The position numbers and the translations under genes were made by a program. Positions 32,495 through 53,528 of a stretch of 64,000 nucleotides of DNA are shown piece by piece (position 1 is the stretch's first letter; the number at the start of each line of letters is the position of its first letter). Origin of the DNA: an uncultured delta proteobacterium (GTDB lineage Bacteria > Myxococcota_A > Polyangia > Polyangiales > Polyangiaceae); NCBI GenBank assembly GCA_963841435.1, contig CAWJCS010000006.1, positions 544,001-608,000 of the forward strand, written 5' to 3'. Under the pieces are notes generated by a model. The model had not been told where the DNA came from and did no database searches. It saw only the letters and a list, made by a program, of their open reading frames with translations.

Positions 32495-32505
32495 GACCAT
32501 GAGCC

Positions 32506-33732
32506 GTGGCGGTCTTCGAGTTCCGCGGAGTCGAGGTAGCGAGCGGGAAGTCCGTCAAGGGCTTCCGCGACGCGGAGAACCCGAGAGGGCTGCGCGCGAT
32601 GCTGCGCCGCGAGGGCATCTTGCTCACGCAGGCGACGGAAGAGAGCGAGCGCGAGGCACGGGCGAAGCGAAACGTCGACCCTCTGGCGGTGTTTCGACGG
32701 CCGAGCGGCTCGGACGTCGCCGTGATGACGCGGCAGCTCGCGACGCTCGTGCGCGCCGGCGTGCCGCTCGTGGAGTCGATCCAGGCGCTCACCGAGCAGG
32801 TGGAAAACGAGCAGCTCGTGCGCATTCTCACGAACGTGCGCGAGAGTCTCAACGAGGGCACGAGCTTCGCGAAGAGCCTCGAGGCACACCCACGCGTGTT
32901 CCAGGCGCTCTACGTCAACATGGTGGCTGCGGGCGAGGCGTCGGGCACGCTCGAGGCCGTGCTCGAACGGCTCGCAGACTTCATGGAGGGCCAGGCGCGG
33001 CTGCGCGGCAAGGTGGCGGGCGCGCTCGCCTATCCAGTTTTGATGGCGGTGATCGGCTCGGGGCTCGTGGGCTTTCTGATGGTGGCCGTCGTTCCCAAGG
33101 TGACGAGCGTGTTCGACAGCCTCGGCCAGGCGCTCCCCTGGTACACGCAGCTTCTGATCACGGTCTCGAGCGTCGTGGCCGGCTACTGGTGGCTGTTGCT
33201 CGGCACGCTCGCCCTGTCGATCTACCTGTTCCGGCGCTGGAAGCGCACGCCGAAGGGAAAGATGCGCTGGGACGCGTTTCGGCTGCGGGCGCCGCTTTTC
33301 GGCCGGCTCACGCAGCTCGTGGCCGTGGCGCGCTTCGCGCGAACGCTCTCGACGCTCTTGTCGAGCGGCGTGCAGCTCTTGCAGGCGATGGAGATCGGGC
33401 GGCACGTGCTCGAAAATGCCCGCCTCGAGGCCGTCATCGCGGAGGCGATTGGCTCGATCCGGGGCGGCGAGAGCATCGCGGAGCCGCTCAAGCGCAGCAA
33501 GGCGTTCCCCCCGATGGTCACGCACATGATCGCCGTCGGCGAGAAGACCGGCCAGCTCGAGGCCATGCTCGAAAACGTGAGCCGCTCGTACGAGGCCGAC
33601 GTCGAGACGCGCGTCACGGCGCTCACGAGTCTGCTCGAGCCGATCATGATCGTCTTGCTCGGCGGCGCGGTGGGCTTCATCGCCATGGCCATCCTCATGC
33701 CGCTCATCCAGATGAATCAGCTGGTGGAGTGA
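32506..33732 (+). CDS. gspF: T2SS inner-membrane platform protein GspF
   Basis: TRQLATLVRAGVPL, AGEASGTL, ALAYP, VGEKTGQL, LLEPIMI. Confidence 0.96.
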   Translation: MAVFEFRGVEVASGKSVKGFRDAENPRGLRAMLRREGILLTQATEESEREARAKRNVDPLAVFRRPSGSDVAVMTRQLATLVRAGVPLVESIQALTEQVENEQLVRILTNVRESLNEGTSFAKSLEAHPRVFQALYVNMVAAGEASGTLEAVLERLADFMEGQARLRGKVAGALAYPVLMAVIGSGLVGFLMVAVVPKVTSVFDSLGQALPWYTQLLITVSSVVAGYWWLLLGTLALSIYLFRRWKRTPKGKMRWDAFRLRAPLFGRLTQLVAVARFARTLSTLLSSGVQLLQAMEIGRHVLENARLEAVIAEAIGSIRGGESIAEPLKRSKAFPPMVTHMIAVGEKTGQLEAMLENVSRSYEADVETRVTALTSLLEPIMIVLLGGAVGFIAMAILMPLIQMNQLVE

Positions 33733-33735
33733 ACG

Positions 33736-34146
33736 ATGGCGAGCTCTTCCCGCGTGCCGCGCCTGTTCTTCCCGTGGGAGGGGAGGCGCGGCCTCAGGCG
33801 CTTTTTCCGCTTCGGACCGCTCAGGCCGTTCCTGTTCGTCGCCCTGGTCACCGCTTTCGTGATGCTCGTCGGGGCTCGCGAGCGGCGCGCCGCCGGCGTG
33901 CGACAGACCCGCGCGACGCTGCTCGGCGCGCGGCGCTCGGTCGAGGCGTACGTCGCCGACCACGACGGGGGGTGCCCGCCGTCGCTGGAGGCGGTCACGG
34001 AGCCGCTCAAGGGCGAAGGGCCGCCGCGCGACGCGTGGGGGCGTCCCCTGCGCCTGCGCTGCCCGGGCCGCTTCGATGGGGCAACCTACGAGCTCATGAG
34101 TGATGGACCGGACGGGGAACCCGGCGGTCTCGATCGAATCGAATGA
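33736..34146 (+). CDS. Atypical GspG-like pseudopilin without a clear prepilin motif
   Basis: C-terminal T2SSG-like DAWGRP...CPG...YELMSDGPDG..G..D and a hydrophobic segment, but no G|FxxxE. Confidence 0.75.
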   Translation: MASSSRVPRLFFPWEGRRGLRRFFRFGPLRPFLFVALVTAFVMLVGARERRAAGVRQTRATLLGARRSVEAYVADHDGGCPPSLEAVTEPLKGEGPPRDAWGRPLRLRCPGRFDGATYELMSDGPDGEPGGLDRIE

Positions 34147-34159
34147 ACACGAGGAACCG

Positions 34160-34600
34160 ATGATGAGTGTTTTCCGAGTTTCCAATTCCATGCTGGCCCG
34201 CGCGCTCCGTGTGAGGCGGCGTCGCGGCGTGACGCTGTTCGAGGTGCTGATCGTCGTGGCCATCCTGGCGATGGTCGCGGGCGGCGTCGCCTTCTTCGCG
34301 CTCCCGAAGTTCAAGGAAGCGCAAGTGAAGACCGCGGAGGGCGCGGCGCGCGTGATCCGCCAGGCCGCGCAGTCCTGGCAGGCCACGAACAACGAGAGCA
34401 GCTGCCCGACCGTGAGCCAGCTCGTGCAGGACAAACTGCTCGACCCCGGCCAGAACACGGCCGATCCTTGGGGGCAGGCCTTCTCGCTGAGCTGCAGTGA
34501 CGACGACGTCACGGTCACGTCGAGCGGCCCCGACAAGAAGAAGGGCACCAAGGACGACGTGATGGTGCCGAAGGGCGCCACGCCGACCGGCGGAGAGTGA
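34160..34600 (+). CDS. gspG: Major pseudopilin GspG-like
   Basis: RRRG|VTLFEVLIVVAIL, DPWGQ, SSGPDKKKGTKDD. GAGG RBS before ATG 34160. Confidence 0.85.
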   Translation: MMSVFRVSNSMLARALRVRRRRGVTLFEVLIVVAILAMVAGGVAFFALPKFKEAQVKTAEGAARVIRQAAQSWQATNNESSCPTVSQLVQDKLLDPGQNTADPWGQAFSLSCSDDDVTVTSSGPDKKKGTKDDVMVPKGATPTGGE

Positions 34601-34603
34601 CGA

Positions 34604-35296
34604 GTGCGCTTTGCCCGAGCCCGAGCCCGCCTGCGCGGGGTGACGCTGGTCGAGGTGCTGATCGTGGTCGCCTTGATCGCGATCCTCTCGGGCGCGGTGG
34701 CGTTCGGGTCCGGCATGTTGAAGTCCACGCGGCTCAAGAGCGCGAGCACGTTGATTGCGAGCGCCGTGCGGCTCGGGCTCGCGCGCGCCAACAATTCCGG
34801 CCACCCGACCCGCCTCGTGCTCGACCTCGAGCATCAGCGCGTCCTGCTCGAGGAAGCGACCGGCTCGCGCATGTTGCGCGAGAACGAGGCCCCCGCGGCG
34901 GGGGCCGAGGCCGCGACGGAGGCGGAGCAAGCCGCCAAGGCCGAGAGCGATCGCATCCTGGACGGCCCTCACGCGCCGCGCGCGAGCTTCTATCCCGTGC
35001 GGCAGTTCTCCGACACACCCGATGGGCGTGACCTCGGCAGCGGCGTCGCGATCGCGTCCGTGCAGACGGAGCACGACGACGAGCCCGTCACGGCGGGCAC
35101 GGGTTACGTCTACTTCTGGCCCGGCGGAATCACCGAGCGAGCGTACATCCAGCTCAAGCGTTCCGGGGCCGACGAGGCGCTCACCGTGATCGTCAGCGCG
35201 CTCACGGGGCGCACGCGCATCGAGCGCGGGCTCGTCGAGATGCCCGAGCCGCGCACCGACGAAGAGAAGGACCAAGGCGAGCGAGCGGAGCCATGA
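34604..35296 (+). CDS. gspH: Minor pseudopilin GspH/FimT-like
   Basis: LRG|VTLVEVLIVV, YFWPGG..E, C-terminal LTGR. Position in the cluster fits. Confidence 0.85.
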   Translation: MRFARARARLRGVTLVEVLIVVALIAILSGAVAFGSGMLKSTRLKSASTLIASAVRLGLARANNSGHPTRLVLDLEHQRVLLEEATGSRMLRENEAPAAGAEAATEAEQAAKAESDRILDGPHAPRASFYPVRQFSDTPDGRDLGSGVAIASVQTEHDDEPVTAGTGYVYFWPGGITERAYIQLKRSGADEALTVIVSALTGRTRIERGLVEMPEPRTDEEKDQGERAEP

Positions 35297-36007
35297 AGCG
35301 CGGCTTTACCCTGCTCGAAGTGCTGATGGCCATCGCGATCCTCGGCCTCGGTTTGTCGGTCTTGCTCGGCGCCCAGACGGGGCTGTTCGCCAACGCGAAC
35401 CGCGCCGAGCACATCAGCATTGCGACGGGGCTTGCGCGCTGCAAGATGAGCGAGGTCGAGCTCGAGTTGCTCCAGAAGGGCTATCCGCTCGTCGACGACG
35501 ACGGCGAGGGCGATTGCTGCCTGGGCGAAGCCCAGGAGGGCTTTCAGTGCCGGTGGAAGGTGTTGCGCGTGGAGCTGCCGGAGCCGCCGCCCGCCGACCT
35601 CGAAGGGGACGGTGGTCTCGACACCGAGTTCGACGGGCCCGCTCGGCGCGCTCGCTTCGCTCGAGCAGAATCGCGGGCAAGCGCTCGGAGAGAACCCCGA
35701 CATCGGCGCGCTCGCTTCGGAGCTCGGCGGCGCCGTCGGCGGCGGCGATGGGCTCGCCAGCATGGTGATGGGTTTCGTCTACCCGAGCCTCAAGCCCGTG
35801 CTCGAGGCGAGCATACGTAAGGTCATCGTGACCGTCGAATGGCACGAGGGGTCGCGCGAGCGGACGCTCGACGTGACCCAGTACCTCACGAATCCACAAC
35901 TCCCGACGGAAGAGGAGCTCGACGGCGGCGTCGGGGCGCTCGGCGGACTCGGCGCTTCACCGACGACGGGTGGCGCGACGACCGGGACACCGGCGGGGAC
36001 TGAATGA
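35293..36007 (+). CDS. gspI: Minor pseudopilin GspI with one +1 frameshift near 35620-35641 (probable sequence error)
   Basis: MKRG|FTLLEVLMA N-terminus. The C-terminus (SIRKVIVTVEW..G......VTQYL) is in the 35612..36007 frame. Span is 715 nt = 3n+1, and ATGA overlaps gspJ. Confidence 0.8.
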
Positions 36008-36718
36008 AGCGTCGAAGAAGCCCGGGAACACTCGCTTTCACGCTCGTCGAGCTGCTCGTCGCCGTGTCCGTGCTCGCGTTCATCACCATGCTGCTCTACG
36101 GCGCCTTCTCCGGCATGAAGCGCACGCGCGACGGCCTCGCGCGCACGCAAGCGCGTTACCGCGAGGGTCGCATCGCGCTGACGCGTTTCGTGCGCGATCT
36201 CGAGAGTGCCTACATCTCCGCGCATGCGCCGCTCAATGAACAGCTCGCTGTGCAGAAGACGGCCTTCATGGGCCATCTCGGCAATCCTGCGGATCGCATC
36301 GACTTCAACGCCTTCTCCAACGTGCGCCGCGATCGCGACTCGCACGTGACCGACCAGCTCGAAGTCTCCTATTTCGGCGGCGAGAGCCTCGACGAGCCGG
36401 GCACCACCGATCTGCTCCGAAGGAGCAGCACGACCCTCGACGACAAGCCCGACGAGGGGGGTCGCGTTCAACGTGATCGCCACCGACATCGACCTGTTCG
36501 ACCTTTCCTACCTCGACCCCACGACGAGCCTGTGGTCCGACACCTGGGACACGACGCAGGCGGCCGGGCAACCGAACCGGTTGCCACTCCAGGTTCGCGT
36601 CACGCTCGTCTTGAACGGTGGTCGCCGTAGCTCGTCGGACCGAGGGCGAGGGAAGCTGAAGTTCACGACGACGGTGCTCCTTCCCATCCAGCAGCCCCTG
36701 AGCTTCGCCACGCAATGA
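36004..36718 (+). CDS. gspJ: Minor pseudopilin GspJ with one +1 frameshift near 36468 (probable sequence error)
   Basis: LA|FTLVELLVA N-terminus. The C-terminus (WSDTWDT...RLPLQVRVTL) is in the 36473..36718 frame. Span is 715 nt = 3n+1, and ATGA overlaps gspK. Confidence 0.8.
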
Positions 36719-38136: not shown

Positions 38137-39639
38137 ATGGGACGTTTTCTCGGCATCGACATCGGCTCGCGCGTCGTCAACGTGGCGCTGCTCGACGTGG
38201 GCTACCGTCGGCTATCCGTCGTGGCGCTCGCCGAGGCGGGCGTCGAGGGCGCGCCGTCGCTCGAGGACGTGCTCCGCGCCGTGGCCGGGCCGCTCATGGA
38301 GCACGTGGACGCGATCGGCGTGGCGATCGACGGCGATCTCACGTTCACGCACCGTCTGACGCTGCCGCCCACGGCGCTTCGGCAGATCGACGAGATCCTC
38401 GCGTTCGAGCTCGAGAGCGCGTTACCCGTCGAGCTCGAGGACATCGTGTTCGGCTACCGTGTGCTCAGGCGCAAGGGCCCAAAGGACCCGCTGGTCGTTC
38501 TTGCGGGGGCCGCGCGCACCGAGCACGTGCGCGCCCGCATCGATCTCGTGAAGAAGGCGCTCGGGCGAGAGCCGGACCGTGTCGGGCACGGCGGTATCGC
38601 GCTCTCGAACCTCGCGGGCGTGACGCCCGAGCTAAGGACGACGGAGCCCGTGGCGCTCGTCGACCTCGGCGGCCACCGCACGGAGGTCACCGTGCTCGTC
38701 GACGGGGAAGCCGTGTCTGCGCGCACGCTGTCGCGCGGCGTGAGCAGCCTGCCCGCGGGCGCCCCCCAGCTGGCTGCCGAGCTCCGCCAGTCGCTGCTCG
38801 GCTGGGTTGCCGAGGGTGGCGCCGAGGTGCGCTCGGTGTACCTCGTGGGCGGCGGTGCCCAGGCGAGCGGCGCCGAAACCTACTTCGCGTACGAGCTCGG
38901 CGTCCCCGTGGTGGCCCTGCCGCGGCCGGCGCTCGAGGGCGTCAACCCCGACCAAGTGTCCTCGCTGCCGCGCTTCGCGAAAGCTATCGCGCTCGCGCTC
39001 GGCGCGGCGGGGCGTGGTCACGACATCGACCTCAGGAAGGGGCCGCTCTCCTTCCAGCGGGGCTTCTCGTTTCTCAAGGAGAAGGCCCCGCTTCTCATCG
39101 GGCTCGGCGGCGCGGTGGCGGTGAGCTTCCTGTTCGCGGTGTGGGCGGAGCTTCGCGCCATCGGCAAGGATCTGGACGCCGCGTCGAGTGACCTCGAGCG
39201 GGTCACGGAGCTTGCCTTCGAGCGCCCCACGCGCGACGCGCTCGAAGCGCTCGACATGCTCGAACAGGCCAAAAATCCGCCGGAGAGCGACCCCATGCCG
39301 CGCCTCGACGCCTTCGACGTCATGGTCGAGCTCTCGAAGGCGATCCCGGTTTCCGTCACGAGCGACATCGAAGAGCTCGACATGCAGCGCGGGCACGTGC
39401 GCGTGCAAGGCGTCGTGGGCTCGACCGCCGACGCGTCGCTCGTGCGCGACAAGATCGCCGAAAGCCAATGCGTCGTCGATGCCAAGATCGGCAAGGTCAC
39501 TCAGGTGATCAACGGCACGCGGCAAAAATACGTGCTCGAATACGATTTGAAGTGCCCCGGTGAAGGCGGCACCAAGAAGAAGACGACGGACAAGGCCGGC
39601 GAAGGCACCTCCGAAGACCAGGACAAGGGCGAGCCATGA
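38137..39639 (+). CDS. gspL: GspL (PilM-like actin-fold cytoplasmic domain, TM, periplasmic domain)
   Basis: LGIDIGS, LVDLGG, VYLVGGGA actin-like motifs; TM near residue 320. Follows gspK. Confidence 0.85.
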   Translation: MGRFLGIDIGSRVVNVALLDVGYRRLSVVALAEAGVEGAPSLEDVLRAVAGPLMEHVDAIGVAIDGDLTFTHRLTLPPTALRQIDEILAFELESALPVELEDIVFGYRVLRRKGPKDPLVVLAGAARTEHVRARIDLVKKALGREPDRVGHGGIALSNLAGVTPELRTTEPVALVDLGGHRTEVTVLVDGEAVSARTLSRGVSSLPAGAPQLAAELRQSLLGWVAEGGAEVRSVYLVGGGAQASGAETYFAYELGVPVVALPRPALEGVNPDQVSSLPRFAKAIALALGAAGRGHDIDLRKGPLSFQRGFSFLKEKAPLLIGLGGAVAVSFLFAVWAELRAIGKDLDAASSDLERVTELAFERPTRDALEALDMLEQAKNPPESDPMPRLDAFDVMVELSKAIPVSVTSDIEELDMQRGHVRVQGVVGSTADASLVRDKIAESQCVVDAKIGKVTQVINGTRQKYVLEYDLKCPGEGGTKKKTTDKAGEGTSEDQDKGEP

Positions 39640-40256
39640 CGTTGCGCGAGCGTCTCGAACGACTGGAAGACCGCGAGCGTCGCCTGCTCGGGCTTGCGCT
39701 CGGCGTCGCCCTGCTCGGTGCCGTGCTGATCCCGCCGGCGGCGTTGCTCGCCGTGGTGCACGGGCGTCGCACGGACGTCAACGCCATCCGCGACGCCATC
39801 ACGGCGATCAACGACGACGCAGCGGCCGTCGAGCAGGCCCGCGCGGAAAAAGAAGCGATCACTCAGCGGTACGCACGCCCGGCGCCACAGCTCCAGGCCT
39901 TCCTGGCAAAGCTCGCGGGCGAGTCGGAGGTCGAGATCCCCGAAAGCCAGGACCGACAATCGGTGCCGCGTGGCAAACGTTTCGAGGAGCGGTCAACCAA
40001 GGTGACCTTGCGCAAGATCGGCATGCTCAAGCTCGTGAAGTTCCTCGAGCGCATCGAGCAATCCGGCTACCCCGTCAAGATCTCGCAGATCGACGTGCGC
40101 AAACGCGGCACCGAGCCCGACTCGTACGACGTCGACATGATCGTGAGCGCCTTCGATCGCAAAGCCGAACCCAAGGCCAAGGACGCGCTCGACGGCGGGG
40201 TCGCCACCTCGGGGAGCGCGACCGCGAAGGACGACTCGAGCGAGGACGAAAAGTGA
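39636..40256 (+). CDS. gspM: T2SS protein GspM
   Basis: L.RLEDRERRLL followed by a TM, and LVKFLERIE. Follows gspL. Confidence 0.82.
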   Translation: MTLRERLERLEDRERRLLGLALGVALLGAVLIPPAALLAVVHGRRTDVNAIRDAITAINDDAAAVEQARAEKEAITQRYARPAPQLQAFLAKLAGESEVEIPESQDRQSVPRGKRFEERSTKVTLRKIGMLKLVKFLERIEQSGYPVKISQIDVRKRGTEPDSYDVDMIVSAFDRKAEPKAKDALDGGVATSGSATAKDDSSEDEK

Positions 40257-41230
40257 CCCCGCGCCTGCGCAAGATATTGATCGGGGCCGGGTACGTGGTC
40301 GGATACCTCGTGCTCCTCATGATGTTCTTCTACCTGACGTTTCCGTACGATCGTTTGCGGGAACGCATCGTGAGGGACTTCAACGCACGCCAGACGGGTC
40401 CCGAGCCGATGCGGCTCGAGATCGACTCCATCAGCTCCTACTTTCTGAGTGGCGTGGAAGCGGAGGGGGTGCGGCTCGTCTCGAAGGCCGACGATTCGGC
40501 GCCGAAGGGCCAGAAAACCAAGGTGACGGGCATCGAGCAGGCCCACGCGCGGCTGTCGATCCTGGCGCTCCTCGTGGGGCGCCGCAAAGTGAGCTTCGGC
40601 GCGGACGCGTTCGGGGGCAGCGTCGACGGGACGATGGTCGACTCGGACGAGGAGCGCAACATCGACGTCGAGATCGACGCGGTCGACTTCGGTCAGACCC
40701 CGTTCCTCGCGGGCCTGCTCGGCATCCCGCTCGCGGGCGCGCTTTCCGGGACGATCCACCTCGTGGCGCCCGAGGCGCGGCTGAGTCGCGCCGAGGGCAA
40801 GCTTTCGCTCAAGGTGGCTGGTGTCACCGTGGGTGACGGCAAGGCCAAGATCCGCGACATCATCGCGCTGCCGAAGCTCGAAGCGGGTAACCTCGTCCTC
40901 GAAGCTGAGGTTACGAAAGGCCAGGTCAAGGTCACGGAGCTCAGCGCTCACGGTCCCGATCTCGATCTAACGGCCGACGGTACCATCCGCCTGCGTGATC
41001 AGCCCGATCAGAGCTTTCTGAACCTCTCGGCGGAGTTCAAGTTCACCGATCGCTTCACGAACAAGGATGACATCACGCGCGCCCTGTTCGGAAAATCCGG
41101 CGCTTTCGACCTCGATCCGAAGAACCGGCGCGCCAAGCGTCCCGACGGGTACTACGGCTGGCGCGTCACGGGGTCGCTGTCACGGGCGAACTTCACGCCG
41201 AACCCCGTGGCGCTGCCGAAGAAGAAGTGA
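40253..41230 (+). CDS. gspN: T2SS protein GspN
   Basis: FFYLTFPYDRL N-terminal anchor and beta-rich body. GTGA overlap with gspM; last gene of the cluster. Confidence 0.85.
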   Translation: MTPRLRKILIGAGYVVGYLVLLMMFFYLTFPYDRLRERIVRDFNARQTGPEPMRLEIDSISSYFLSGVEAEGVRLVSKADDSAPKGQKTKVTGIEQAHARLSILALLVGRRKVSFGADAFGGSVDGTMVDSDEERNIDVEIDAVDFGQTPFLAGLLGIPLAGALSGTIHLVAPEARLSRAEGKLSLKVAGVTVGDGKAKIRDIIALPKLEAGNLVLEAEVTKGQVKVTELSAHGPDLDLTADGTIRLRDQPDQSFLNLSAEFKFTDRFTNKDDITRALFGKSGAFDLDPKNRRAKRPDGYYGWRVTGSLSRANFTPNPVALPKKK

Positions 41231-41297: not shown

Positions 41298-44200
41298 TCA
41301 CGAATCGACGGCAATCTGCAGCTGTTGCCGCAAGTCGAAGTACGCCGGGCTCACGCTGAACAGCACGAGCTCCTGGAAGCGTTCCTGCTGAGACACGGCC
41401 GCCGACGCCTCGTCCGTCGCGCGGATGACGGCGACGGCCTGTTCGAGGTCGTGGCAGAGCAAGAAACCAGCGCGGTCCGCCGTCAGATCGATGCCGCCGC
41501 TCCAGCGTTTGAGGTCGAGTGCCGTGCCGGACTGCAAGAGCTTGGAGACCACGCGCGTCAGCTGGTCGCGCGCCGGGCCCTGGATGCCGGCGTCGAGCGC
41601 CCGCATCGCTTCGGCCACGGCCCCCGCGAGCTCGGCCGCGACGGGGAAGTGCGGCGCCGTGAGCTTGATCGCGGCGAAAAGCCAGGACTTTAGCGCCGTG
41701 CCCGTCGCGAGTACGTGGCGTACGTAGCTTCCGGGTCGCATGAACGCAAGCTTCTGTCCGGCGATGAATGCCGCGGGGCGTAGCGGAACGTCGGAGCGTA
41801 GCGCGGTCGCGCCCAGCGTGAGGGCGGGCTCGCGCGCGAACAAGAAGCCGAGCCCACCGGGGTCGTTCGGGTTCTCGAACACGGGCGGCGGTTGCATGCC
41901 GAACACGCCCGCCGCGTAGAACAGGCTCTGGCACACGGGCGCCGGGTGCGTCGCGAGCTCCACGGTGAAACGCGCGTCGTAGCCGAGCTCGCCGAGGTCC
42001 TGACCACGCTTGGCGACGACGGCCGGCTCGATCAGAGCGAACACGGCCGTGAGCAGCGGATCCGCGTCGGGGTGCATGAGCAAGCTCAGCCAGTCGTCGT
42101 CGCTCAGCACGGCCTGGGCGGCGGCGGCCGTTTCCGAGCGCATGCGCTTGTAGAAACGCTCCTCGTCGGGCTCGGCGAGCTTGAGCACGGTGAGCGCCTG
42201 GCACAGGCACCATGCGGCGTCGGCGCGCCGCGTTTCCGTGTAGAGGCGCCGGAGCGTCCGGTACGACTCGTGGCGGAACGGATTCTGCTTGAGCAGGATG
42301 GCCTGGGTCGCGACGGCCTTGTCGAGGTAGCGCTCGGGCGCCGTGGCGTAGAGCGTGCTCAGACGTTCGGCTCGCTCGCGGTTCTCCGGGTCGAGTGTCT
42401 GTGCAGCCTCGTAGGCGTCGATCGCCTTGTCGACCCAGCCGAGCTTGTGCTCGTAGAGCTCGCCGAGACGGTTGAAGGCGCTCAGCATCGCGGCCTGGTC
42501 GTCGTTCTGCGTGGCGCGCTCGAGCATCTTCTGCACGAGCTTTTCGACCCCCTCGTGATCACCACGGTCCGAGTAAAGGTCCGCCGCCTCGTTCATGGCG
42601 CGCTCGAAGCCGGGGTCGAGCGCGAGCACCTGCTCGTAGAACTCGAGCGCGCGGCCCGTGTCGCCTATCTGCATGGCCGTGACGATGGCGGCCGTGTGCA
42701 GGTATTTGACGCGTTGCTTCGGGTCCTCGACGAAGTCGGCGAGCCGCACGACGACGTCGACGAGCTTGTTCCAGTCCTTCTCCTCGCTGTAAAGCTGCAT
42801 CAGCTTGGCGAGGATGCGGCGGTCGTCGGGGCGCTCCTCCAGCGCGGCGACGAAGCTCTTGGCGGCCTGCGTGCGGTCGTTGAGGTTGGTCGAGGCGATC
42901 TCGCCGACATCCAGCAGGAGCTGCACGCGCGCATCGCCCTCGGCGATATCGAGGTGCCGCGTCTTGACCCGGATGGCGTCCTCCCAGAGCTCGAGCGTCG
43001 TGTAGACCTGCTCGAGGGCCGAGAGTGGCTCGGCACTCTGCGGGTCGAGGTCCGCGGCTTCCTCGAGCGGTGGTATGGCGGCTCGGAGATTGCCCGAGCG
43101 CCTGAGCGCCTCGCCACTGCGATAGTGCGCGAGGAAACGGTCCTTGATCTCGAGCGACCCGCCGAAACGCGAAAGCAGCGTCTCGTAGAGCTCCGCCGCG
43201 CGCGCGGGCGAGCCGTGCTCGAAGGTGACCTGGGCCACGCGAGCGAGCGCTTGCGGGTCGTCCGGCGCGAGGCGGAGCAGCGTGTCCATCGGGACGAGCG
43301 CCTGCTCGGTGGAGCCCGAGAGCGCGAGCGCGTCGACGTAATTGATCAACATGCGCGCGGCCTGGGCCTTGTCGAGGGACTCCGCTCGACCGGCGATGAC
43401 CTCGTAGTGTTTGGCCGCTTCGAGGTAGCGCTTGTCCTCGAGCGCAAGGTCGCCGAGCACGAGTAGCGCGTCGAGGTTCGTCGGGTCGAGCTTTGCGGCG
43501 CGCTTCGCGGCCTCCTCGGCGCGCTTTGGGTCCTTGAGGTTGGAGGCGTACAGCGTGGCGCTCTGACCGATGAGCTTCGCCTTGGCGATGTCGCCCTCGG
43601 TGTGCTCGACCGCACGCTCGAGCAGCTGGATGGCGGCGTTGACGTCGCCGCGCGCGACGTAAGCCTCGCGCAGGGCTGCTGCCGTGCCGAGGTCGCGTGG
43701 GTTGGCGTCGAGCGCTTGTTTGTAGCGTTCGACTGCCGCGTCGCGGTCGCCACGCGACTCGAGCAAGCGAGCGGCGCGCACGAACTGCTCGGCGCGCGCC
43801 TCGGGCGTCGTTGCCTTGGCCGCGAGCGCGTCGATCGCCGAAAGCGCGGCGTCGGCGTCGCCGGCCGATTCACGCAGCCGAGCGAGCGCTTCGAGCGCTT
43901 GCGGGTGCTGGGGTTCGAGCGCCAGCGCTTCCTCGTACGCACGGAGCGCGCGATCGGGTGACGCGAGGCGCTCGGCGAGCAGGCGCGCGCGTTGCAGGAT
44001 CAGCGCGAGGCGCCGCAGCGGCTCGGCGATCAGCCGCTCGTGCTTCTCGTAGAGCTCGACGGCATCCTCCCAGCGCTCGAGCGCGCGGTAGTGACGTGCG
44101 AGGCCCGAGAGCGCGCCCTCGTGAGTCGGATCGAGCGACAGCACCTGCTCGAGCGCGTGAGCCGCCCTGTCGTGGTCGAGGAACTCTTCCTCGTGGATCG

Positions 44201-46598
44201 CCGCGATGCGCTCCCACAGCGCGATCTTCTGCCGCGGCGTTGCGGCCGCGGCGATCTGCAGGTCCAGGTTGACGAGCAGATCCTGGAAGCGGCCCGCCTT
44301 GCTATAGAGCCGATCGAGTCCGCGTAGCGCGTCAAGGCTTCGCGGATCGATGTCGAGCGCAGCCTGTAGACGGCGCTCGGCCTCGGCGTCGTCGCCCAGC
44401 TTGAGCTCGAACAGCTCGGCGATACGGCAGAGCGTCTTGACCTTGTCCTCACCGCGCTGCGCATCGGCGCGCCGCTCGAGGATCTTGACGAGCGCGCCGT
44501 GGTCGCCGGCCCGTTCGCAGAGCCGGACGAGCTGATTGCTCGCCGCGACGTGGCCCGGGTCCTCCGCGAGGATCGCCTCGACCATCGAGCGCGATGCCGC
44601 GGGGTCTCCGAGGTAGAGCTCGAGCAGCTCGGCGGCCTCGGCGCGGTAGTCGCGCGCAAGCGCGGGGCTCGGCGAAGCGTCGGCCCGTCGCGTGAGCACG
44701 CCGCCGAGCTCCGCCCACTGCTGAGCCTTCTGGTAGATTTTCGCCATGCCTTCTAGCGCGGCGTCGTTGGCGGGGTCGGCGGCAACGACGGCCTGGTAGC
44801 AGGGCAGGGCGAGATCGAGACGATTCAGCCGCTCGGCGTACCAGCGGCCCGCACGGAGAAAGAGCGCGGCGCGCTCCTCGGCCGAAAGCTCCACGTTCTG
44901 CGCGGACTCGGTGGCGCTCGAGAGCACCTCGGCCCACGCCTCCTCGCGCGAGCCGGCGAGCCGCTCGATCTCGGACGCTATCGAGTCTTGCTGCGGATCC
45001 TCGCAGATGGCCTGCGTGAACGCAACGAGCGCCTGGTCGCGGTCCTTGATGTCCTGCGCGTAGATGCGGCCGATCTCCGCGTACACGCGCGCACGCTCGA
45101 CACGCGTGGGGGCTCGCTCGCTGCGCCCGAGCAAGGTCTCGATGAGCTCCTCGAACTTGCCTTGCCGGCGTCGCACGTCCTCGAGGCCACCGAACGCGAT
45201 CCGATCCTCGGGATCGAGCTCGATCAGCTCCTCGTAGAGCGCTTCGGCGGCAGGCAGCGTATCGCGCCGCGCGGCCAGAACGCGGGCGGCGCGAAACAGC
45301 AGCGATTTTCGCGTGGCGAGCTCCTCGGGCGGCAACCCCCGCGCGATCTCGAGGAACGCCTGCGAGATGCGCTCGGGGGCGCCCTCGGCGGCCGACTCGA
45401 GCTGCAGCGCGCAGCTCTCGTCCGCAGGGTCCGCCGCGAGCCGCTGCAGCAGGGCATCGACCTCTTCCCCCGACATCGGGGGCATGATGCTCATCGTGCG
45501 TTGCGCGTGGTCGAGGGTGTCGAGCACGGTCCGCGCGTCCGCTGGTCGCATGCCCGGGTCCTTGTGGAGCAGGTTGCTCAAGAGGTCGTCGAGCTCGGGG
45601 GGGACCCAGCCGCGCGGGGCCACGGAGCTCGCGAGGGGCGGTTCGCGCGTGAGGTGCCCGAAGGCCGTGTCGAGTGCCGACCCGTTGAACGGCGGCACGC
45701 CCGTCAAGAGCTCGAAGGCCATGGCCCCGAAGGAATAGACGTCACTCTTGGGGTCGGATTCGAGGCCGCGGATCTGCTCCGGGGCCGCCGTTTTCACGGA
45801 CGCCGAGGTCGAGAACAGCTCCGCGCGATCGTTGCCGATGCGCGGGCGAACGCGCAGCCGGTCGGAGCCGGCGTCGAGTAGGACGACGCGCAGCGCGCCC
45901 TCTGCGGTGCGGAGCGCGACCACGTTCTCGAGCCGGAGGTCGCCGTGCGCGATACGCCGCGCGTGGAGGGCAGCGAGGCCCTCGAGCACCGCGCGCAACA
46001 GGGGCCGAGCGTCGTTCACGTGCAGCGGTCCCGTGCGCGCGATGCGCTCGGCCAGCGTCTCGCCTTCGACGAGCTCGTGGGCGACGTAGTACCGCCCGTC
46101 GATGGTTCCCGACTCGAGCTCGTGGGGGAGGTAGTCGTGCTCGATCTGGCCGATCAGGCGGTTGGCCGTGAGAAAACGCTGGAGCCCGCGACGATCGCGG
46201 GCCGCTTCGTGGCGTAAGAGGCGCACGCGGAAGGTCTGGTGCCCGCGCGTGGCGGCGTAGACGATGGCCGAGCGGCCTTCGCCGAGCTTTTCGGTGAGGG
46301 CGAACGGGCCGAGCTGCGCGCCGACGGGCAGGGCATCTTCGCGAGTCACTCCTCGGGTGCGAAGCTCGGCAATCTCCGGGCTCGAGTCGGGCCGCAGCGC
46401 GAGGAGCACGTCACAGAGCGCCTCGACGGCGTCCTGCTCCGCCGCGTAGCTCGATAGGGCGCCTGCAAAGGAAGCCTTGGCGGCCGTGCCGCCCACGACG
46501 TCCGGGTCGAAGCCCAGAAGGTCACGGCATAGGTGTAAGAGTTCCTCTAGCTCGAAGGACCTTTCGAGCTCCGCCCGCAGGAGTTCCGTCTCGATCAT
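41298..46598 (-). CDS. Giant multidomain protein: EAD-like N-terminus, Ser/Thr kinase-like (probable pseudokinase) domain, long TPR array, myxobacterial C-terminal domain
   Basis: Kinase subdomains LGEG..AIVY, HGDLRLENV, LLDAG, APEQ, SDVYSFG...ELLTG.PPF, RP. Many TPR-like repeats. C-terminal DL.RW....DLTADRAG.LLC.DL motif. Confidence 0.88.
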   Translation of the reverse strand: MIETELLRAELERSFELEELLHLCRDLLGFDPDVVGGTAAKASFAGALSSYAAEQDAVEALCDVLLALRPDSSPEIAELRTRGVTREDALPVGAQLGPFALTEKLGEGRSAIVYAATRGHQTFRVRLLRHEAARDRRGLQRFLTANRLIGQIEHDYLPHELESGTIDGRYYVAHELVEGETLAERIARTGPLHVNDARPLLRAVLEGLAALHARRIAHGDLRLENVVALRTAEGALRVVLLDAGSDRLRVRPRIGNDRAELFSTSASVKTAAPEQIRGLESDPKSDVYSFGAMAFELLTGVPPFNGSALDTAFGHLTREPPLASSVAPRGWVPPELDDLLSNLLHKDPGMRPADARTVLDTLDHAQRTMSIMPPMSGEEVDALLQRLAADPADESCALQLESAAEGAPERISQAFLEIARGLPPEELATRKSLLFRAARVLAARRDTLPAAEALYEELIELDPEDRIAFGGLEDVRRRQGKFEELIETLLGRSERAPTRVERARVYAEIGRIYAQDIKDRDQALVAFTQAICEDPQQDSIASEIERLAGSREEAWAEVLSSATESAQNVELSAEERAALFLRAGRWYAERLNRLDLALPCYQAVVAADPANDAALEGMAKIYQKAQQWAELGGVLTRRADASPSPALARDYRAEAAELLELYLGDPAASRSMVEAILAEDPGHVAASNQLVRLCERAGDHGALVKILERRADAQRGEDKVKTLCRIAELFELKLGDDAEAERRLQAALDIDPRSLDALRGLDRLYSKAGRFQDLLVNLDLQIAAAATPRQKIALWERIAAIHEEEFLDHDRAAHALEQVLSLDPTHEGALSGLARHYRALERWEDAVELYEKHERLIAEPLRRLALILQRARLLAERLASPDRALRAYEEALALEPQHPQALEALARLRESAGDADAALSAIDALAAKATTPEARAEQFVRAARLLESRGDRDAAVERYKQALDANPRDLGTAAALREAYVARGDVNAAIQLLERAVEHTEGDIAKAKLIGQSATLYASNLKDPKRAEEAAKRAAKLDPTNLDALLVLGDLALEDKRYLEAAKHYEVIAGRAESLDKAQAARMLINYVDALALSGSTEQALVPMDTLLRLAPDDPQALARVAQVTFEHGSPARAAELYETLLSRFGGSLEIKDRFLAHYRSGEALRRSGNLRAAIPPLEEAADLDPQSAEPLSALEQVYTTLELWEDAIRVKTRHLDIAEGDARVQLLLDVGEIASTNLNDRTQAAKSFVAALEERPDDRRILAKLMQLYSEEKDWNKLVDVVVRLADFVEDPKQRVKYLHTAAIVTAMQIGDTGRALEFYEQVLALDPGFERAMNEAADLYSDRGDHEGVEKLVQKMLERATQNDDQAAMLSAFNRLGELYEHKLGWVDKAIDAYEAAQTLDPENRERAERLSTLYATAPERYLDKAVATQAILLKQNPFRHESYRTLRRLYTETRRADAAWCLCQALTVLKLAEPDEERFYKRMRSETAAAAQAVLSDDDWLSLLMHPDADPLLTAVFALIEPAVVAKRGQDLGELGYDARFTVELATHPAPVCQSLFYAAGVFGMQPPPVFENPNDPGGLGFLFAREPALTLGATALRSDVPLRPAAFIAGQKLAFMRPGSYVRHVLATGTALKSWLFAAIKLTAPHFPVAAELAGAVAEAMRALDAGIQGPARDQLTRVVSKLLQSGTALDLKRWSGGIDLTADRAGFLLCHDLEQAVAVIRATDEASAAVSQQERFQELVLFSVSPAYFDLRQQLQIAVDS

Positions 46599-46833
46599 CG
46601 CTCGCCGTCGTCCGTCTTCGCCGTGGCCGCCCCCGGCTGCCGGGCAGGGGGCCGGCCGCTCGGCAGGGAGTAGGACGATAGCCGGCTCCCCGCTCCGCCG
46701 CTGCAAAAATCCTCCCAAGTCCGCGAAAGTCTGGACGAAATTTTGGAGCCAGACAGGACCTCCGGCCGCGACGCAAAGGGACGCAACGGATGGTCCTTTG
46801 GCCAGCCCACGGGGCCCGTGCGAAGGTCGCCCC

Positions 46834-47133
46834 GTGCCGCGCCCCCGCGCCGCTCTCTACCAACGGGCCCTTCCGCTCCTCGTGATCGCGACGGCGGCGG
46901 TGGCGGTTCCGGTGATGATTGTCTCGCCACGGGGGCTCGACCGGCTGAACGCGCTCCGCGAAGAGCGGTCGCGAGCCGACGGCGAGGTGCGGCGGCTCAC
47001 GCGGGAGATCGACCGGCTGCGCGCCGAGGTGGCCCGGATCAAGGACGATCCCGCGGCGATCGAGCGTGTGGCGCGCGACGAGATCGGGCTCGTGCGGCAG
47101 ACCGAGGTCGTGTTCCAGTTCCGGCCGCAATAG
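46834..47133 (+). CDS. ftsB: FtsB/DivIC septum formation initiator
   Basis: TM plus coiled coil and DPAAIERVARDEIGLVRQTEVVFQF. GTG start at 46834. Confidence 0.88.
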   Translation: MPRPRAALYQRALPLLVIATAAVAVPVMIVSPRGLDRLNALREERSRADGEVRRLTREIDRLRAEVARIKDDPAAIERVARDEIGLVRQTEVVFQFRPQ

Positions 47134-47217: not shown

Positions 47218-48276
47218 ATGAAGCTCGTGTCGGCCGAGACGGTGTGCGCGCTTTTGCGTGCCGGAGTGCCCGAGGCGGAGCTCGAGCGCGTGCTCGCGCT
47301 GGCGGTCGGCCAGGGCCGGCCCCTGAACAGCGTCCTTTTGGACGCGAGCAGTGAGCTTCTCGATGCCGTCGCGCGCGAGCACCTCCGCCGCGAGGTCGAC
47401 TCCGTCGAAATGGTGCGGCCGGCCGCGAGCCTCGTCGAGCTCCTGCCGGCCGGGCTCTGCGAGCGCCTCGGCGCCGTGCCGGTGCAACGCGATGCCCGGT
47501 CGGGGCGTGTCGACATAGCGGCGGTTGACCCGTTCGATCCCCACGTGGAGAGAGAGCTCGGGTTTCACCTCGAGGCTCCCGTGCGCGTGCTGCGAGCGCG
47601 GCCGGAGGCCATGGCGGCGGCGCTCGCCGGCTTCGGCCCCGCGCGCGTGCCGAGCGGGCCACCACTGCCGCTCGTTCGCAAGGCGCCTCAGGCTGTGTCG
47701 CCCGCGCCCGGGGACGACGAGCCCGTTCTCAGCCTCTCGCGTCCGAAGATCGAGCGCACCGCTTCGTCGCCGACGGCGGGCACGGTGCCGCCTCCCGTCA
47801 CCGAGCCCATGCCCTCACTGCTCGGTGACTTCGAGAACGCGACGAGCGCGGAGGAGATTGTCGCGCTCCTGTTGCGCGGTATGGCGCCTGCTCCCACGCT
47901 GGTGCTCTCCGTGCGGAGCGGTGTCTACTCGGGTCGCGCTGGGAGCCCTTCGCTCGAGGTCGACGCGGTGCGTCGTGTCCGGCTTGCCGTGGGCACGGCG
48001 AGTGTGGTCGAAACCGCCGTCCGCTCGGGTTTTTACCTCGGAGTCTTGCCGATGACGCCGGCGCACGCGCCTCTGCGCGAGCTCTTCGGCGGCGCTGCCG
48101 AGCACGAGGTTTACGTGGTCCCAGTGATGGTCTCGGGCCATGCGAGCCTCATCGTCGCGAGCGAGATCAGCCCGCTCGGCGCAAGCGTGGAGGCGACGCG
48201 ACGCGCGGACCAGCTCGCCGTCGTGAGCGCCCACGCACTCGAACGTATCGTCGTCACGAAGAAGCGCGGCCACTGA
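47218..48276 (+). CDS. Stand-alone GspE/PilB N-terminal-domain protein with Pro linker and GAF-like C-terminus, no ATPase
   Basis: LPAGLCERLGAVPV...VDIAAVDPFD...ELGFHL..PVRVL matches the T2SSE N-domain pattern. No Walker motifs. Confidence 0.7.
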   Translation: MKLVSAETVCALLRAGVPEAELERVLALAVGQGRPLNSVLLDASSELLDAVAREHLRREVDSVEMVRPAASLVELLPAGLCERLGAVPVQRDARSGRVDIAAVDPFDPHVERELGFHLEAPVRVLRARPEAMAAALAGFGPARVPSGPPLPLVRKAPQAVSPAPGDDEPVLSLSRPKIERTASSPTAGTVPPPVTEPMPSLLGDFENATSAEEIVALLLRGMAPAPTLVLSVRSGVYSGRAGSPSLEVDAVRRVRLAVGTASVVETAVRSGFYLGVLPMTPAHAPLRELFGGAAEHEVYVVPVMVSGHASLIVASEISPLGASVEATRRADQLAVVSAHALERIVVTKKRGH

Positions 48277-51462: not shown

Positions 51463-51933
51463 TCAGGCGCCGCGGCGTGCAACGAGCTCGGGCGGTGCCT
51501 GAACGAGCTCGATGAGCACGCCCTCCCCGCCGTGCGGCGATTCGTCGTTGCCGCGGGGATGGATGAAGCAGACGGGGTGGCCGCTCGCACCCTTGCGGAT
51601 GCCACCGGGCGTGAAGCGCACGCCTCGCGCCGCGAGCCACGCCTGGGCGCGCGCCAGATCGTCAACCCACAGACCGAGGTGATGCAGCGGCGGTTCGTGC
51701 ACGCGTGGCCGCCGCGCGGGATCGACGGGTTGCATGAGATCGATCTCCACGCGGCCGTCCCCGACGCCGACGCTGAGCACGTCCTCGTCAACGTTCTCGG
51801 CCTCGCTCCGGTAGGTGCCCTCGGAGGTGAGACCCAAAAGATCGACCCAGAGCCGCCGCAGCGGCGCCTTGTCCGCGCCGCCGATTGCGATCTGCTGCAC
51901 GCCTAGCACGCGAAATGGACGCTCGTCACTCAC
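51463..51933 (-). CDS. VOC/glyoxalase family protein (methylmalonyl-CoA epimerase-like)
   Basis: [33 protein letters not shown]...[13 protein letters not shown] start at 51933; converges on meaB. Confidence 0.85.
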
Positions 51934-52719
51934 GGAAAGCGACCCTGCACGCCGAGCGCGAGGTCGAGCGAGGTGTGCAGCGCGCGAATGACGCCCGTGG
52001 TGACGCCGCCCGTCAGGTAGGCGCCGAAGTTCTGCGTGGAAATCGATCTGTGGTCCCGCCGCGAGGTGGAACACGATGTCCCGGGAATACTGGGGATTGT
52101 TGGTTTGCCACTCGGGCGTGCCTCGGCCGCCCTCGGTCTCGTAGGCGACGGCCGGCTCGATGAAGATTTTGAACGCGGCGTCGCTCATCGTGTAGAGCCG
52201 CGCACCGATGCCGAACACCTTGATCGGCTCGGTGTCGGTTGCTTCCTCCGCGCTGAGGCCGAGCTTCACCCAGAAGTACGGCTCGAAGAAATCGAGCAGC
52301 GCAAAGCTCAGTCCGAGGTCCACCGCGAGCGGCGCCCCGTGCCCACAGAACTTGAGCTGGTCACCGGGACCCTTCAGCGGATCCGGCGTTGCACAATAGG
52401 GCGACGCGTCGTAGCGAAGCACCATCCGGTAGCCGCCGACGAGCCCCACGCGCACGCCGATCTGGCCCATGTGGCCGAAATCGTCGTTGCCCTCGTCGGA
52501 CGCTTCGCCTTCGTCCGAAGCTTTCTTTTTGTTCTTGTCGCTCTTGTCGCTCGCCGCCGTGTCACTGTTCGCGTCGTCGTCGTGAGAGGCGGCGGTGCCC
52601 TCGGCACCTTCGGCATCGCCCTTCGCGTCGTCCGCGCGCGCCGGTCCCGCGACACAGACGAGAGCGATGATGAGGGACGTTGTGCTCGAGAGCGCGCGCA
52701 GAAGGGAGGGCGAAGGCAT
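51930..52719 (-). CDS. Outer-membrane beta-barrel protein with one +1 frameshift near 52035-52040
   Basis: Signal peptide ending ARA|D, acidic linker, amphipathic beta strands. The shifted frame ends [33 protein letters not shown], and its TGA overlaps the VOC GTG. Confidence 0.72.
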
Positions 52720-52799
52720 CGGTGGGCCGAACGATACACCCGTTTTTGGCCGACCGGATGGGTCGCGATGGGGCCGATTTCGGCGCGGTTCTGGCAGGA

Positions 52800-53528
52800 T
52801 CAGGAGAGCCCGCGAATCACCGCGCTCACGCCGCCGAGCGCCGAGAGCAACAGCACGGCGTACCGGGTCTTGCCCCGGTCGAGCCACGCGCCGAGGTGCC
52901 GCGAGAGCCAGAACCCGAGCGCCATGCCGGGAACGAGGCCGACCGCAAGAAGAAGCTCGGGCGCGCCGAGCCGACCGATCAGCGCGAGCGCGCTCAGCGA
53001 CATGAACGCCCCAATCAAGAAATAGACGGCGAGCGTCGAGCGGACCATCGCACCCTTCTCGTCTTGGTACAGGATGGCGACAGCGGGTCCACCGAGCGCC
53101 GCCGTGGTGCCCATCAGGCCGGAAATCACGCCTGCCACGCTCAGCATCCATGGCGTGCGGGGCAGGGTGAGCTTCGACAGAGAAATGCCCACGGCGAGCA
53201 GCACGAGTAGTCCGAGGCTGACCGTGAGCGAGCGAGCGCTGAGGGCGCCGAGCGACAGCGCGCCGAGCGCCGTCCCGGGCACGCGCCCGAGCAAGATCCA
53301 CCCAACCCCGCGGATGTCGATCGAATCGCGCTCGCGCAGCGCCGTGAGCGCCAAGAGTAGCGTCACGGCTACGATCAGCGGGCCGGGCACGAGGCGCGGC
53401 TCGACCCACTCGAGCAGGGGCGCCGTGAGCAAGGCGAGTCCGAAGCCGATGCTGGCCTGAACGGCCGAGCCAAGCGCGATGACGAGGACGACGAGGCCGA
53501 GCGCCAGAGGAGACGAGAAGCCGAGCAC
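52800..53528 (-). CDS. TauE/SafE (TSUP) family transporter
   Basis: [32 protein letters not shown]; about 8 TM segments. Confidence 0.9.

Follow-up and report, generated by a model that had tools for sequence, protein, structure and literature searches.

A conserved Polyangiales protein family joining an EAD7-like N-terminal domain and a degenerate kinase-like domain to a GltI/AgmK-like TPR chassis with a putative non-catalytic zincin-like end

Introduction

The IRAK and Pelle kinases of animals consist of a Death domain followed by a kinase or pseudokinase domain. SIR2-headed repeat proteins of the ThsA/DSR type belong to defence systems, and SIR2_2 is a domain typical of defence effectors. 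In bacteria, fusions of bDLD3 to Ser/Thr kinases were noted by Kaur et al. 2021. Effector-associated domains (EADs) are described mainly from conflict systems, where one copy is carried by a core component (VMAP, iSTAND or a STAND NTPase) and more copies by effectors, often encoded in the same operon (PMC7159879, PMC8195603). Here we describe a gene from an uncultured delta proteobacterium of the Polyangiaceae, located at 41298..46598 on the minus strand of a 64,000-nucleotide stretch (GenBank assembly GCA_963841435.1, contig CAWJCS010000006.1, positions 544,001 to 608,000), hereafter the window. Its 1766-residue product begins with an EAD7-like domain, continues into a kinase-like domain and a long TPR solenoid, and ends in a conserved domain found also at the ends of giant myxobacterial TPR proteins.

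Profile-profile comparisons in Kaur et al. 2021 (supplement file 2) tie EAD7 to EAD6, EAD1, bDLD1, Pyrin and DED; of the 27 EAD7 architectures tabulated there (supplement files 2 and 4), 20 have the domain at the N-terminus. The Kaur 2020 supplements examined do not contain the term 'EAD7'. For the giant TPR proteins the described reference is GltI (AgmK), a scaffold presented as cytoplasmic, for which FHA-binding sites are predicted (PMC11761067). In Myxococcus xanthus its gene lies in the gltD-J cluster together with that of GltG, a protein of 640 residues with an FHA domain at residues 26-90 (PMC3169522).

Results

Gene and domain architecture

The open frame spans 41298..46718 on the minus strand, and an ATG at 46598 yields a protein of 1766 residues plus stop, with the N-terminus MIETELLRAELERSF, identical to that quoted in the first-pass annotation of this DNA. 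The start is shared with most of the best 120 relatives, some relatives being recorded with longer N-termini. Pfam analysis of the whole protein returned Pkinase at residues 101-353, many TPR families at about 440-1410, and a weak EAD7 match (PF19960) at 7-70. Four parts were delimited, all on the minus strand: a five-helix EAD7-like and Death-fold-like domain (residues 1-72, 46383..46598), a Hanks-type kinase-like domain with degenerate catalytic motifs (residues 101-353, 45540..46298), a TPR solenoid (residues about 441-1410, 42369..45278), and a conserved C-terminal domain predicted to have a zincin (M48/M56)-like fold without the HExxH motif (residues 1420-1766, 41301..42341). The first-pass annotation had read a kinase-like domain (46330-45515) followed by a TPR scaffold, and its observation is confirmed as written, because the frame, the start and the Pfam layout all agree with it. 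The open frame and the four-part layout are far beyond chance.

A homolog search recovered 1024 proteins at E<=0.001. The best 120 of these are 59-100% identical to the window protein over their full length, and 119 of them measure 1763-1820 residues, the other being a fragment of 1517 residues. Their source names, where given, are Polyangiaceae, Myxococcales or 'Pseudomonadota' bacterium, and 6 of the 120 carry a precomputed PF19960 match. NCBIfam gave no over-threshold name for the 1766-residue protein, and no paper describing this architecture was found in a literature search.

The N-terminal domain

The EAD7 match covers residues 7-70 and all of the profile (positions 1-62 of 62). It scored 14.9 bits within the whole protein and 22.4-23.2 bits (E about 1e-4) for the domain alone, where the cut-off is 32. 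In an alignment of 27 N-terminal domains from related genomes, 19 members matched EAD7 at E<=0.01 (best 3.1e-8), and only one other Pfam family competed, in a single member. When the Pfam model was run through 301 sampled Myxococcota genomes, nine genomes had matches at E<=0.001, every one of them N-terminal on a frame of 1754-2063 residues belonging to this family; two relatives passed the cut-off, with 32.9 and 32.2 bits. None of 14 control genomes matched.

AlphaFold2 modelled the aligned domain as a confident five-helix bundle, with a predicted local distance difference test (pLDDT) score of 90.6 and a predicted template modelling (pTM) score of 0.80. In VIA-align of this model, 36 of the best 50 rows were CARD, PYD, DD or DED by title, which agrees with the EAD7 linkage reported in Kaur et al. 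2021. The structural check suggested in the first-pass annotation, AlphaFold plus Foldseek for each domain, gave confident models for both end domains (the C-terminal one is described below), but Foldseek against the PDB returned nothing at E<=0.001 for either of them. The N-terminal domain is small, non-enzymatic, all-alpha, terminal and related to the Death-like superfamily, as EADs are. From the profile matches and the predicted structure we conclude that it is probably a diverged EAD7 lineage whose fold is Death-like, in line with the EAD-like and Death-domain-like reading of the first-pass annotation.

A family profile built from the N-terminal domains found 272 proteins at E<=0.001 among 1.84 billion representatives. 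Among the best 150 of the 272, some are complete members of the family and the rest are short proteins that carry the domain at their N-terminus or close to it; the short ones (under about 1250 residues) are probably fragments, and no other EAD7 architecture occurs among these 150.

Distribution, paralog and conservation

A search with the 75-residue N-terminus found matches in 27 of the 301 Myxococcota genomes. Within the family of the source organism 18 of 23 genomes matched, and within two other families of the same order 5 of 20 did (3 of 18 and 2 of 2). Thirty matches, all at E<=3.6e-6, lie in open frames of 1754-2098 residues; four weaker ones (E 3e-4 to 6e-3) in short frames look like noise. 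Several genomes have two or three copies.

In the source genome the Pfam EAD7 model matched the window gene and one further place at E 0.5, at the level of noise, and the N-terminal family profile matched exactly two copies at E<=1. Both copies are borne by proteins of about 1770 residues that have the same four parts and are 41% identical end to end. The first-pass annotation had seen no second such domain in the window and had placed any partner elsewhere; this agrees with the position of the full-length paralog, on another contig (G000 contig 3, L033:6662-12004, minus strand) among genes for an OmpA-family protein, a Na/H exchanger and a histidine kinase. In the paralog the catalytic Asp of the kinase-like domain is replaced (HGALHLAN). 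A predicted complex of the window N-terminal domain with that of the paralog scored 0.06 against a mark of 0.32, in a run that had no controls, and so speaks neither for nor against pairing.

Column conservation among 40 relatives is even, at 0.54-0.91 per 50-residue window, with its peaks in the N-terminal (0.80) and C-terminal (0.81) domains. No hypervariable patch was seen in the TPR region of these 40.

The kinase-like domain

The second domain scored 91.6 bits with Pkinase (PF00069; cut-off 31.7). Its best solved relatives are PknB-type kinases (E 2.8e-21), and it was aligned with PknB 4eqm. Catalytic motifs were counted in 163 full-length relatives and in 22 copies from 18 genomes. The Gly-rich loop reads GEGR[LS]A..Y in the 163 relatives and GEGRSAIVY in the window protein. 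At the likely beta3 Lys position 109 relatives have Lys and 50 have Arg, as does the window protein; the phmmer and family alignments place this position two residues apart. None of the 163 relatives has the alphaC Glu, the segment in them reading R-F-L-T-x-x-R with both Arg invariant, and neither the window protein nor any of the 22 copies has it. The HRD motif takes the form H-G-D, with Asp in 137 of the 163 (HGD in the window protein); the catalytic-loop Asn is kept in 156 of them and in the window protein (DLRLEN); and DFG appears as D-A-G, with Asp in 159 (DAG in the window protein). The APE motif is also kept in the window protein.

Of the full Hanks catalytic set (beta3 Lys, alphaC Glu, HRD Asp, loop Asn and DFG Asp), the window protein has neither the alphaC Glu nor, with Arg in its place, the beta3 Lys, so that the domain is degenerate and an active kinase is not evident from it. 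Seven of the 22 copies have no catalytic Asp: three that are the best-matching copies of their genomes, and all four second copies, including the paralog of the source genome; catalysis is therefore not conserved across the family. Some residual activity may be retained by the window protein, because it keeps the Asp-Asn-Asp set. PADLOC matches to PD-T4-6 (147 bits) and mad6 (121 bits) reflect generic kinase similarity and were rejected, because an ordinary kinase from a related genome reaches 299 bits with these models.

The TPR and C-terminal chassis

The C-terminal 347-residue domain is present in 163 of the 301 Myxococcota genomes, mostly at the ends of TPR frames of 3300-4200 residues, and the source genome has six matches to it. 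One of these is a TPR protein of 3786 residues (G000 contig 6, L056:2397-13757, plus strand; upstream locus L102), whose residues 2474-3784 are colinear with residues 455-1764 of the window protein (29% identity over 1321 residues, E 3e-155). Directly upstream of its gene lie TPR genes and a gene for a 669-residue protein with FHA at residues 27-91. The comparison with AgmK in the first-pass annotation is supported, because the synteny and architecture of the 3786-residue gene resemble the gltD-J cluster, and the window protein is homologous to the TPR plus C-terminal module of this giant. NCBIfam gave no over-threshold name for the giant, a search of the genome with the GltE model gave no over-threshold match, and among the best 120 homologs found with the C-terminus of the giant the names are Polyangiaceae, Sorangiineae, Myxococcales or generic ones, with no named Myxococcus protein. 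Neither the giant size (about 3800-4100 residues) nor the glt-cluster location of GltI is found in the 1766-residue window protein.

The N-terminal parts of seven other carriers of the module, from other families, were surveyed. Three of them, of 1614-1694 residues, begin with a SIR2_2 domain (34-44 bits, over the cut-off), one of 2163 residues has a weak kinase match, and three have TPR only. One SIR2-headed protein is colinear with window residues 480-1766 (29% over 1309 residues). From this survey and the colinearity the chassis is known with at least three heads: Death-fold plus kinase-like, SIR2, and long TPR. The SIR2_2-headed carriers (L105:363-5237, minus strand; L106:1346-6190, plus strand; L108:61-5145, minus strand) come from other Polyangia families and match ThsA models weakly, at about 45-50 bits; they could be defence-type proteins on a motility-scaffold chassis.

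The last 347 residues matched no Pfam family even at E<=10. Searched as a profile against PDB sequences they gave only TPR-type noise, and a protein atlas held only unnamed or TPR Myxococcota clusters for them. AlphaFold2 on an alignment of 22 sequences gave a confident model (pLDDT 93.7, pTM 0.92) that resembles M48/M56 zincin peptidases. The motif by which the first-pass annotation had characterized this domain is kept in 22 of 22 aligned sequences (LDLKRW...IDLTADRAG in the window), and the domain is common at the ends of giant myxobacterial TPR frames, as had been stated; it is more than a motif-bearing region in that it models as a zincin-like fold. Its conserved VDLTADRAG, which is VELTACRAG in the giant protein, is similar to the E..AD that is invariant in M48, and hhalign of the C-terminal profile with M48 brought both helices into register at a probability of only 7%. 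All 15 M48 domains taken from related genomes have HExxH, whereas none of the 22 aligned C-terminal domains does; the corresponding helix reads AFIAGQKLAF in the window and AF.AARHL.Y in the family consensus. Presumably, then, the domain is non-catalytic, and on the basis of these motifs and the model we consider it, with moderate confidence, a probable catalytically dead M48/M56-like domain. The source genome also encodes a 505-residue protein with little beyond this zincin-like domain (G000 contig 6, L057:2030-3547, minus strand), which has no Pfam or NCBIfam match.

Genomic neighbourhood

The gene lies tail-to-tail with a gspK/gspL/gspN-like operon of the type II secretion system (T2SS), whose last gene (39560..41230, plus strand; a weak T2SSN match) ends at 41230, leaving 67 bases between the stops. 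On the other side the divergent neighbour is a small ftsB/DivIC-like gene (46840..47133, plus strand) that encodes a transmembrane helix and a coiled coil and whose counterpart in locus L063 matches Pfam DivIC. The listed open reading frame (ORF) 46477..47133 overextends its start into the large gene; the true start lies inside that ORF. Next comes a gene for a 352-residue protein with an MshEN domain only (47218..48276, plus strand; E 9.4e-12), without a PADLOC match. MshEN is the N-terminal domain of GspE/MshE ATPases. Beyond it lies methylmalonyl-CoA mutase with MeaB.

Synteny was compared for the best-matching copy from 17 of the 22 other strongly matching genomes (those other than G070, G190, G195, G225 and G265). 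The gsp genes and the MshEN gene adjoin in 6 of the 17 loci and ftsB in 8, all among the closest relatives, and in none of four second-copy loci. The gspN and ftsB linkage that the first-pass annotation had offered as a check thus stands in these 6 and 8 loci but is lost elsewhere. The flanks of eight non-syntenic and three second-copy loci contain genes for SecA, PNPase, NADH dehydrogenase subunits, UDP-glucose dehydrogenase, antiporters and similar proteins. The annotation's wiring to the T2SS reduces to a convergent adjacency retained in 6 of 17 loci; the gene is neither encoded in the gsp operon nor conserved with it.

Other features of the window were recorded in passing. The secretin ORF (27528-30728, plus strand) encodes 1066 residues with GspD N0 only from residue 328, and has either a long N-terminal extension or a miscalled start. 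Minus-strand ORFs between gspE and the gspK-like gene (about 32500-36700) have no Pfam match. An ORF of 648 residues (51463-53409, minus strand) that adjoins methylmalonyl-CoA mutase and MeaB matches Glyoxalase_4 only at residues 505-615; it may be overextended, a much shorter epimerase-like gene being possible.

Search for conflict-system partners

The core components considered were VMAP, iSTAND, GAP1 and STAND NTPase, and no gene for any of them adjoins either copy or lies in the flanks of the 11 related loci scanned. The EAD coupling pattern was not seen: the genome has two copies, both on the same kinase-TPR architecture. Models of EAD1, EAD2, EAD4, EAD5 and EAD6 gave no match at E<=0.01 in this 95%-complete genome, the blanks for EAD4, EAD5 and EAD6 being weak because the control genomes also gave none. 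No EAD of the six Pfam types was found on another architecture, nor on any NTPase core, in this genome. Genes for STAND, vWA, MoxR, caspase or TIR proteins were absent from the window, from the paralog locus and from the flanks of 11 other loci. The first-pass annotation had called the protein a candidate conflict hub converging on the T2SS operon. Both of these readings are weak, because there is only one more EAD copy, on the same architecture, and there are no defence neighbours, no hypervariability and near-constant lengths.

Discussion

Our tentative preference is for the view that the protein serves as a cytoplasmic assembly scaffold, inherited vertically and confined to a single myxobacterial order, whose head is IRAK-like. 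The back 1300 residues, a TPR solenoid plus a probably dead zincin-like domain, would duplicate the C-terminal chassis of the giant GltI/AgmK-like scaffold and would most likely hold client peptides or domains. The EAD7-like Death-fold domain would probably self-associate homotypically or pair with the single full-length paralog. The Ser/Thr kinase-like domain, to judge from its motifs, is probably a nucleotide- or conformation-dependent docking or switch module and not an efficient enzyme. Near-constant length, even conservation, presence in 18 of 23 genomes of its own family and housekeeping neighbours support such a housekeeping behaviour.

Several points weigh against this view. EADs are known mainly from conflict systems, and the window protein's own EAD7 score falls short of the Pfam cut-off. 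The hhalign probability to M48 is low, and the likeness of the giant protein to M. xanthus GltI is one of synteny and architecture. Sister proteins have a SIR2_2 head on this chassis. The catalytic Asp and Asn and the Asp of DxG are all present in the window protein, which may therefore still phosphorylate. Moreover, we infer oligomerisation, pseudokinase status, peptide binding and the cellular process from an anatomy, homologies, copy number, distribution and conservation that are themselves observed. The protein is one of many large uncharacterised myxobacterial proteins, and all functional points are predicted.

The kinase motifs also allow a reading in which the protein is itself an active, atypical (non-RD) Ser/Thr kinase hub. 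It would phosphorylate clients held on the TPR and C-terminal scaffold, for instance so as to provide FHA proteins with phospho-Thr sites, and the Asp-less paralog would act as a regulatory pseudokinase through the Death-fold domain, much as IRAK-M relates to IRAK4. The retained Gly-rich loop, HGD, loop Asn, DAG Asp and APE of the window protein speak for this, as do the Asp in 137 and the beta3 Lys in 109 of the 163 relatives and the paralog without catalytic Asp; FHA-domain binding is predicted for TPR scaffolds of the GltI type (PMC11761067), and an FHA protein is encoded beside the giant homolog. Set against these, the alphaC Glu is missing from all 22 copies, the window protein has Arg at the beta3 Lys position, in three other genomes the best-matching copy has no catalytic Asp, so that catalysis is not conserved in the lineage, and no substrate or phosphatase partner was seen near the loci scanned. 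We regard an active hub as rather unlikely. Less probable still is a role in the neighbouring secretion system, as its accessory or regulator: the 67-base convergence with the gspK/L/N-like genes, kept in 6 of 17 loci with the MshEN-domain gene on the other side, is what recommends it, but convergent orientation excludes co-transcription, and 11 of 17 loci as well as all four second-copy loci have lost the adjacency. The retained block also includes ftsB and methylmalonyl-CoA mutase, and therefore suggests inherited gene order among close genera. A secretion role thus seems to us highly improbable.

The SIR2-headed sisters bear on a third reading, that of a conflict protein acting against invaders or in kin discrimination, in the sense of Kaur et al. 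The TPR region and the dead protease would sense or decoy an invader, the EAD7-like domain would multimerise or recruit an effector, and the kinase head would itself be an effector, as SIR2 would be in the sisters. EAD7 similarity and a Death-like fold are what such a protein would show; the parts listed for these systems include EADs, Ser/Thr kinases, super-structure-forming repeats and inactive zincin-like domains (PMC7159879, PMC8195603); and the same 1300-residue chassis bears SIR2_2 in three of seven other carriers, with their ThsA matches. However, there is no core-plus-effector pattern, only two copies of one architecture in a genome in which EAD1, 2, 4, 5 and 6 were not found, and no STAND, vWA, MoxR, caspase or TIR gene neighbours the loci inspected. 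High and even conservation, near-constant length in the best 120 relatives and retained synteny point the same way, and the PADLOC kinase matches are generic, at 147 bits beside 299 for an ordinary kinase. The EAD-based conflict reading of the first-pass annotation did not hold up on this evidence, and we consider it improbable.

The order-specific scaffold that we favour could be taken further. The two Death-fold plus kinase or pseudokinase paralogs might form an IRAK-like pair of the Polyangiales, whose homotypic contacts would build a Myddosome-like assembly on a GltI-type scaffold of TPR and dead protease, the chassis being an exchangeable platform for kinase-like, SIR2 or more-TPR heads. 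We offer this as speculation with little chance of being right in full; if true, bacteria would have an equivalent of the supramolecular organising centres of animals, one whose use extends beyond defence to cell-biological signalling. The findings matter beyond that proposal. An EAD7- or Death-like domain in a highly conserved, apparently vertically inherited protein free of conflict-system signs widens the contexts of these adaptors, and in this protein a bacterial combination of Death fold and (pseudo)kinase becomes open to testing. In gliding scaffolds of the GltI type, the "substantial helical C-terminal domain" could be an M48-like zincin that is catalytically dead, which suggests a peptide-holding role. 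A 1300-residue chassis of TPR and putative dead zincin with at least three heads would link, through its modularity, a motility-scaffold family to effector-like proteins.

Comparison with known systems

The window protein is like EAD7 (PF19960; Kaur, Burroughs, Iyer and Aravind 2020/2021) in its small all-helical terminal domain, its full-length profile match with two relatives over the cut-off, its N-terminal placement and its paralogous copy in the same genome. It differs in its sub-cut-off score and in having no copy on a VMAP, iSTAND or STAND core, and its family differs in showing neither operon partner nor defence context, together with apparent vertical inheritance and high conservation. 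With the M48/M56 zincins (Ste24/ZMPSTE24, BepA, HtpX-like proteins, BlaR1) it would have the C-terminal fold in common, but its domain has no HExxH, a weak profile match and no membrane helices. The SIR2-headed defence repeat proteins of the ThsA/DSR type are represented by the sister proteins, in which SIR2_2 replaces the Death-fold and kinase-like domains on the same chassis; the window protein has no SIR2 domain and is related to them by the chassis only.

IRAK/Pelle and the bDLD3-kinase fusions have the same succession of a Death-fold domain and a kinase-like domain, and paralogs that vary in a catalytic residue. For IRAK/Pelle the likeness is one of architecture only, the window kinase being PknB-like by sequence; the window protein continues into 1400 residues of TPR and zincin-like domain, and no MyD88-like or receptor partner is known for it. 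Compared with GltI (AgmK, MXAN_4863), the focal-adhesion scaffold of Myxococcus gliding, the window protein is less than half the size, with its Death-fold plus kinase-like head in place of about 2470 residues of TPR, and its gene lies outside the glt cluster, beside T2SS, ftsB, MshEN and mutase genes. What the two have in common is the TPR plus C-terminal third, through the 3786-residue protein encoded in the glt-like cluster of the same genome.

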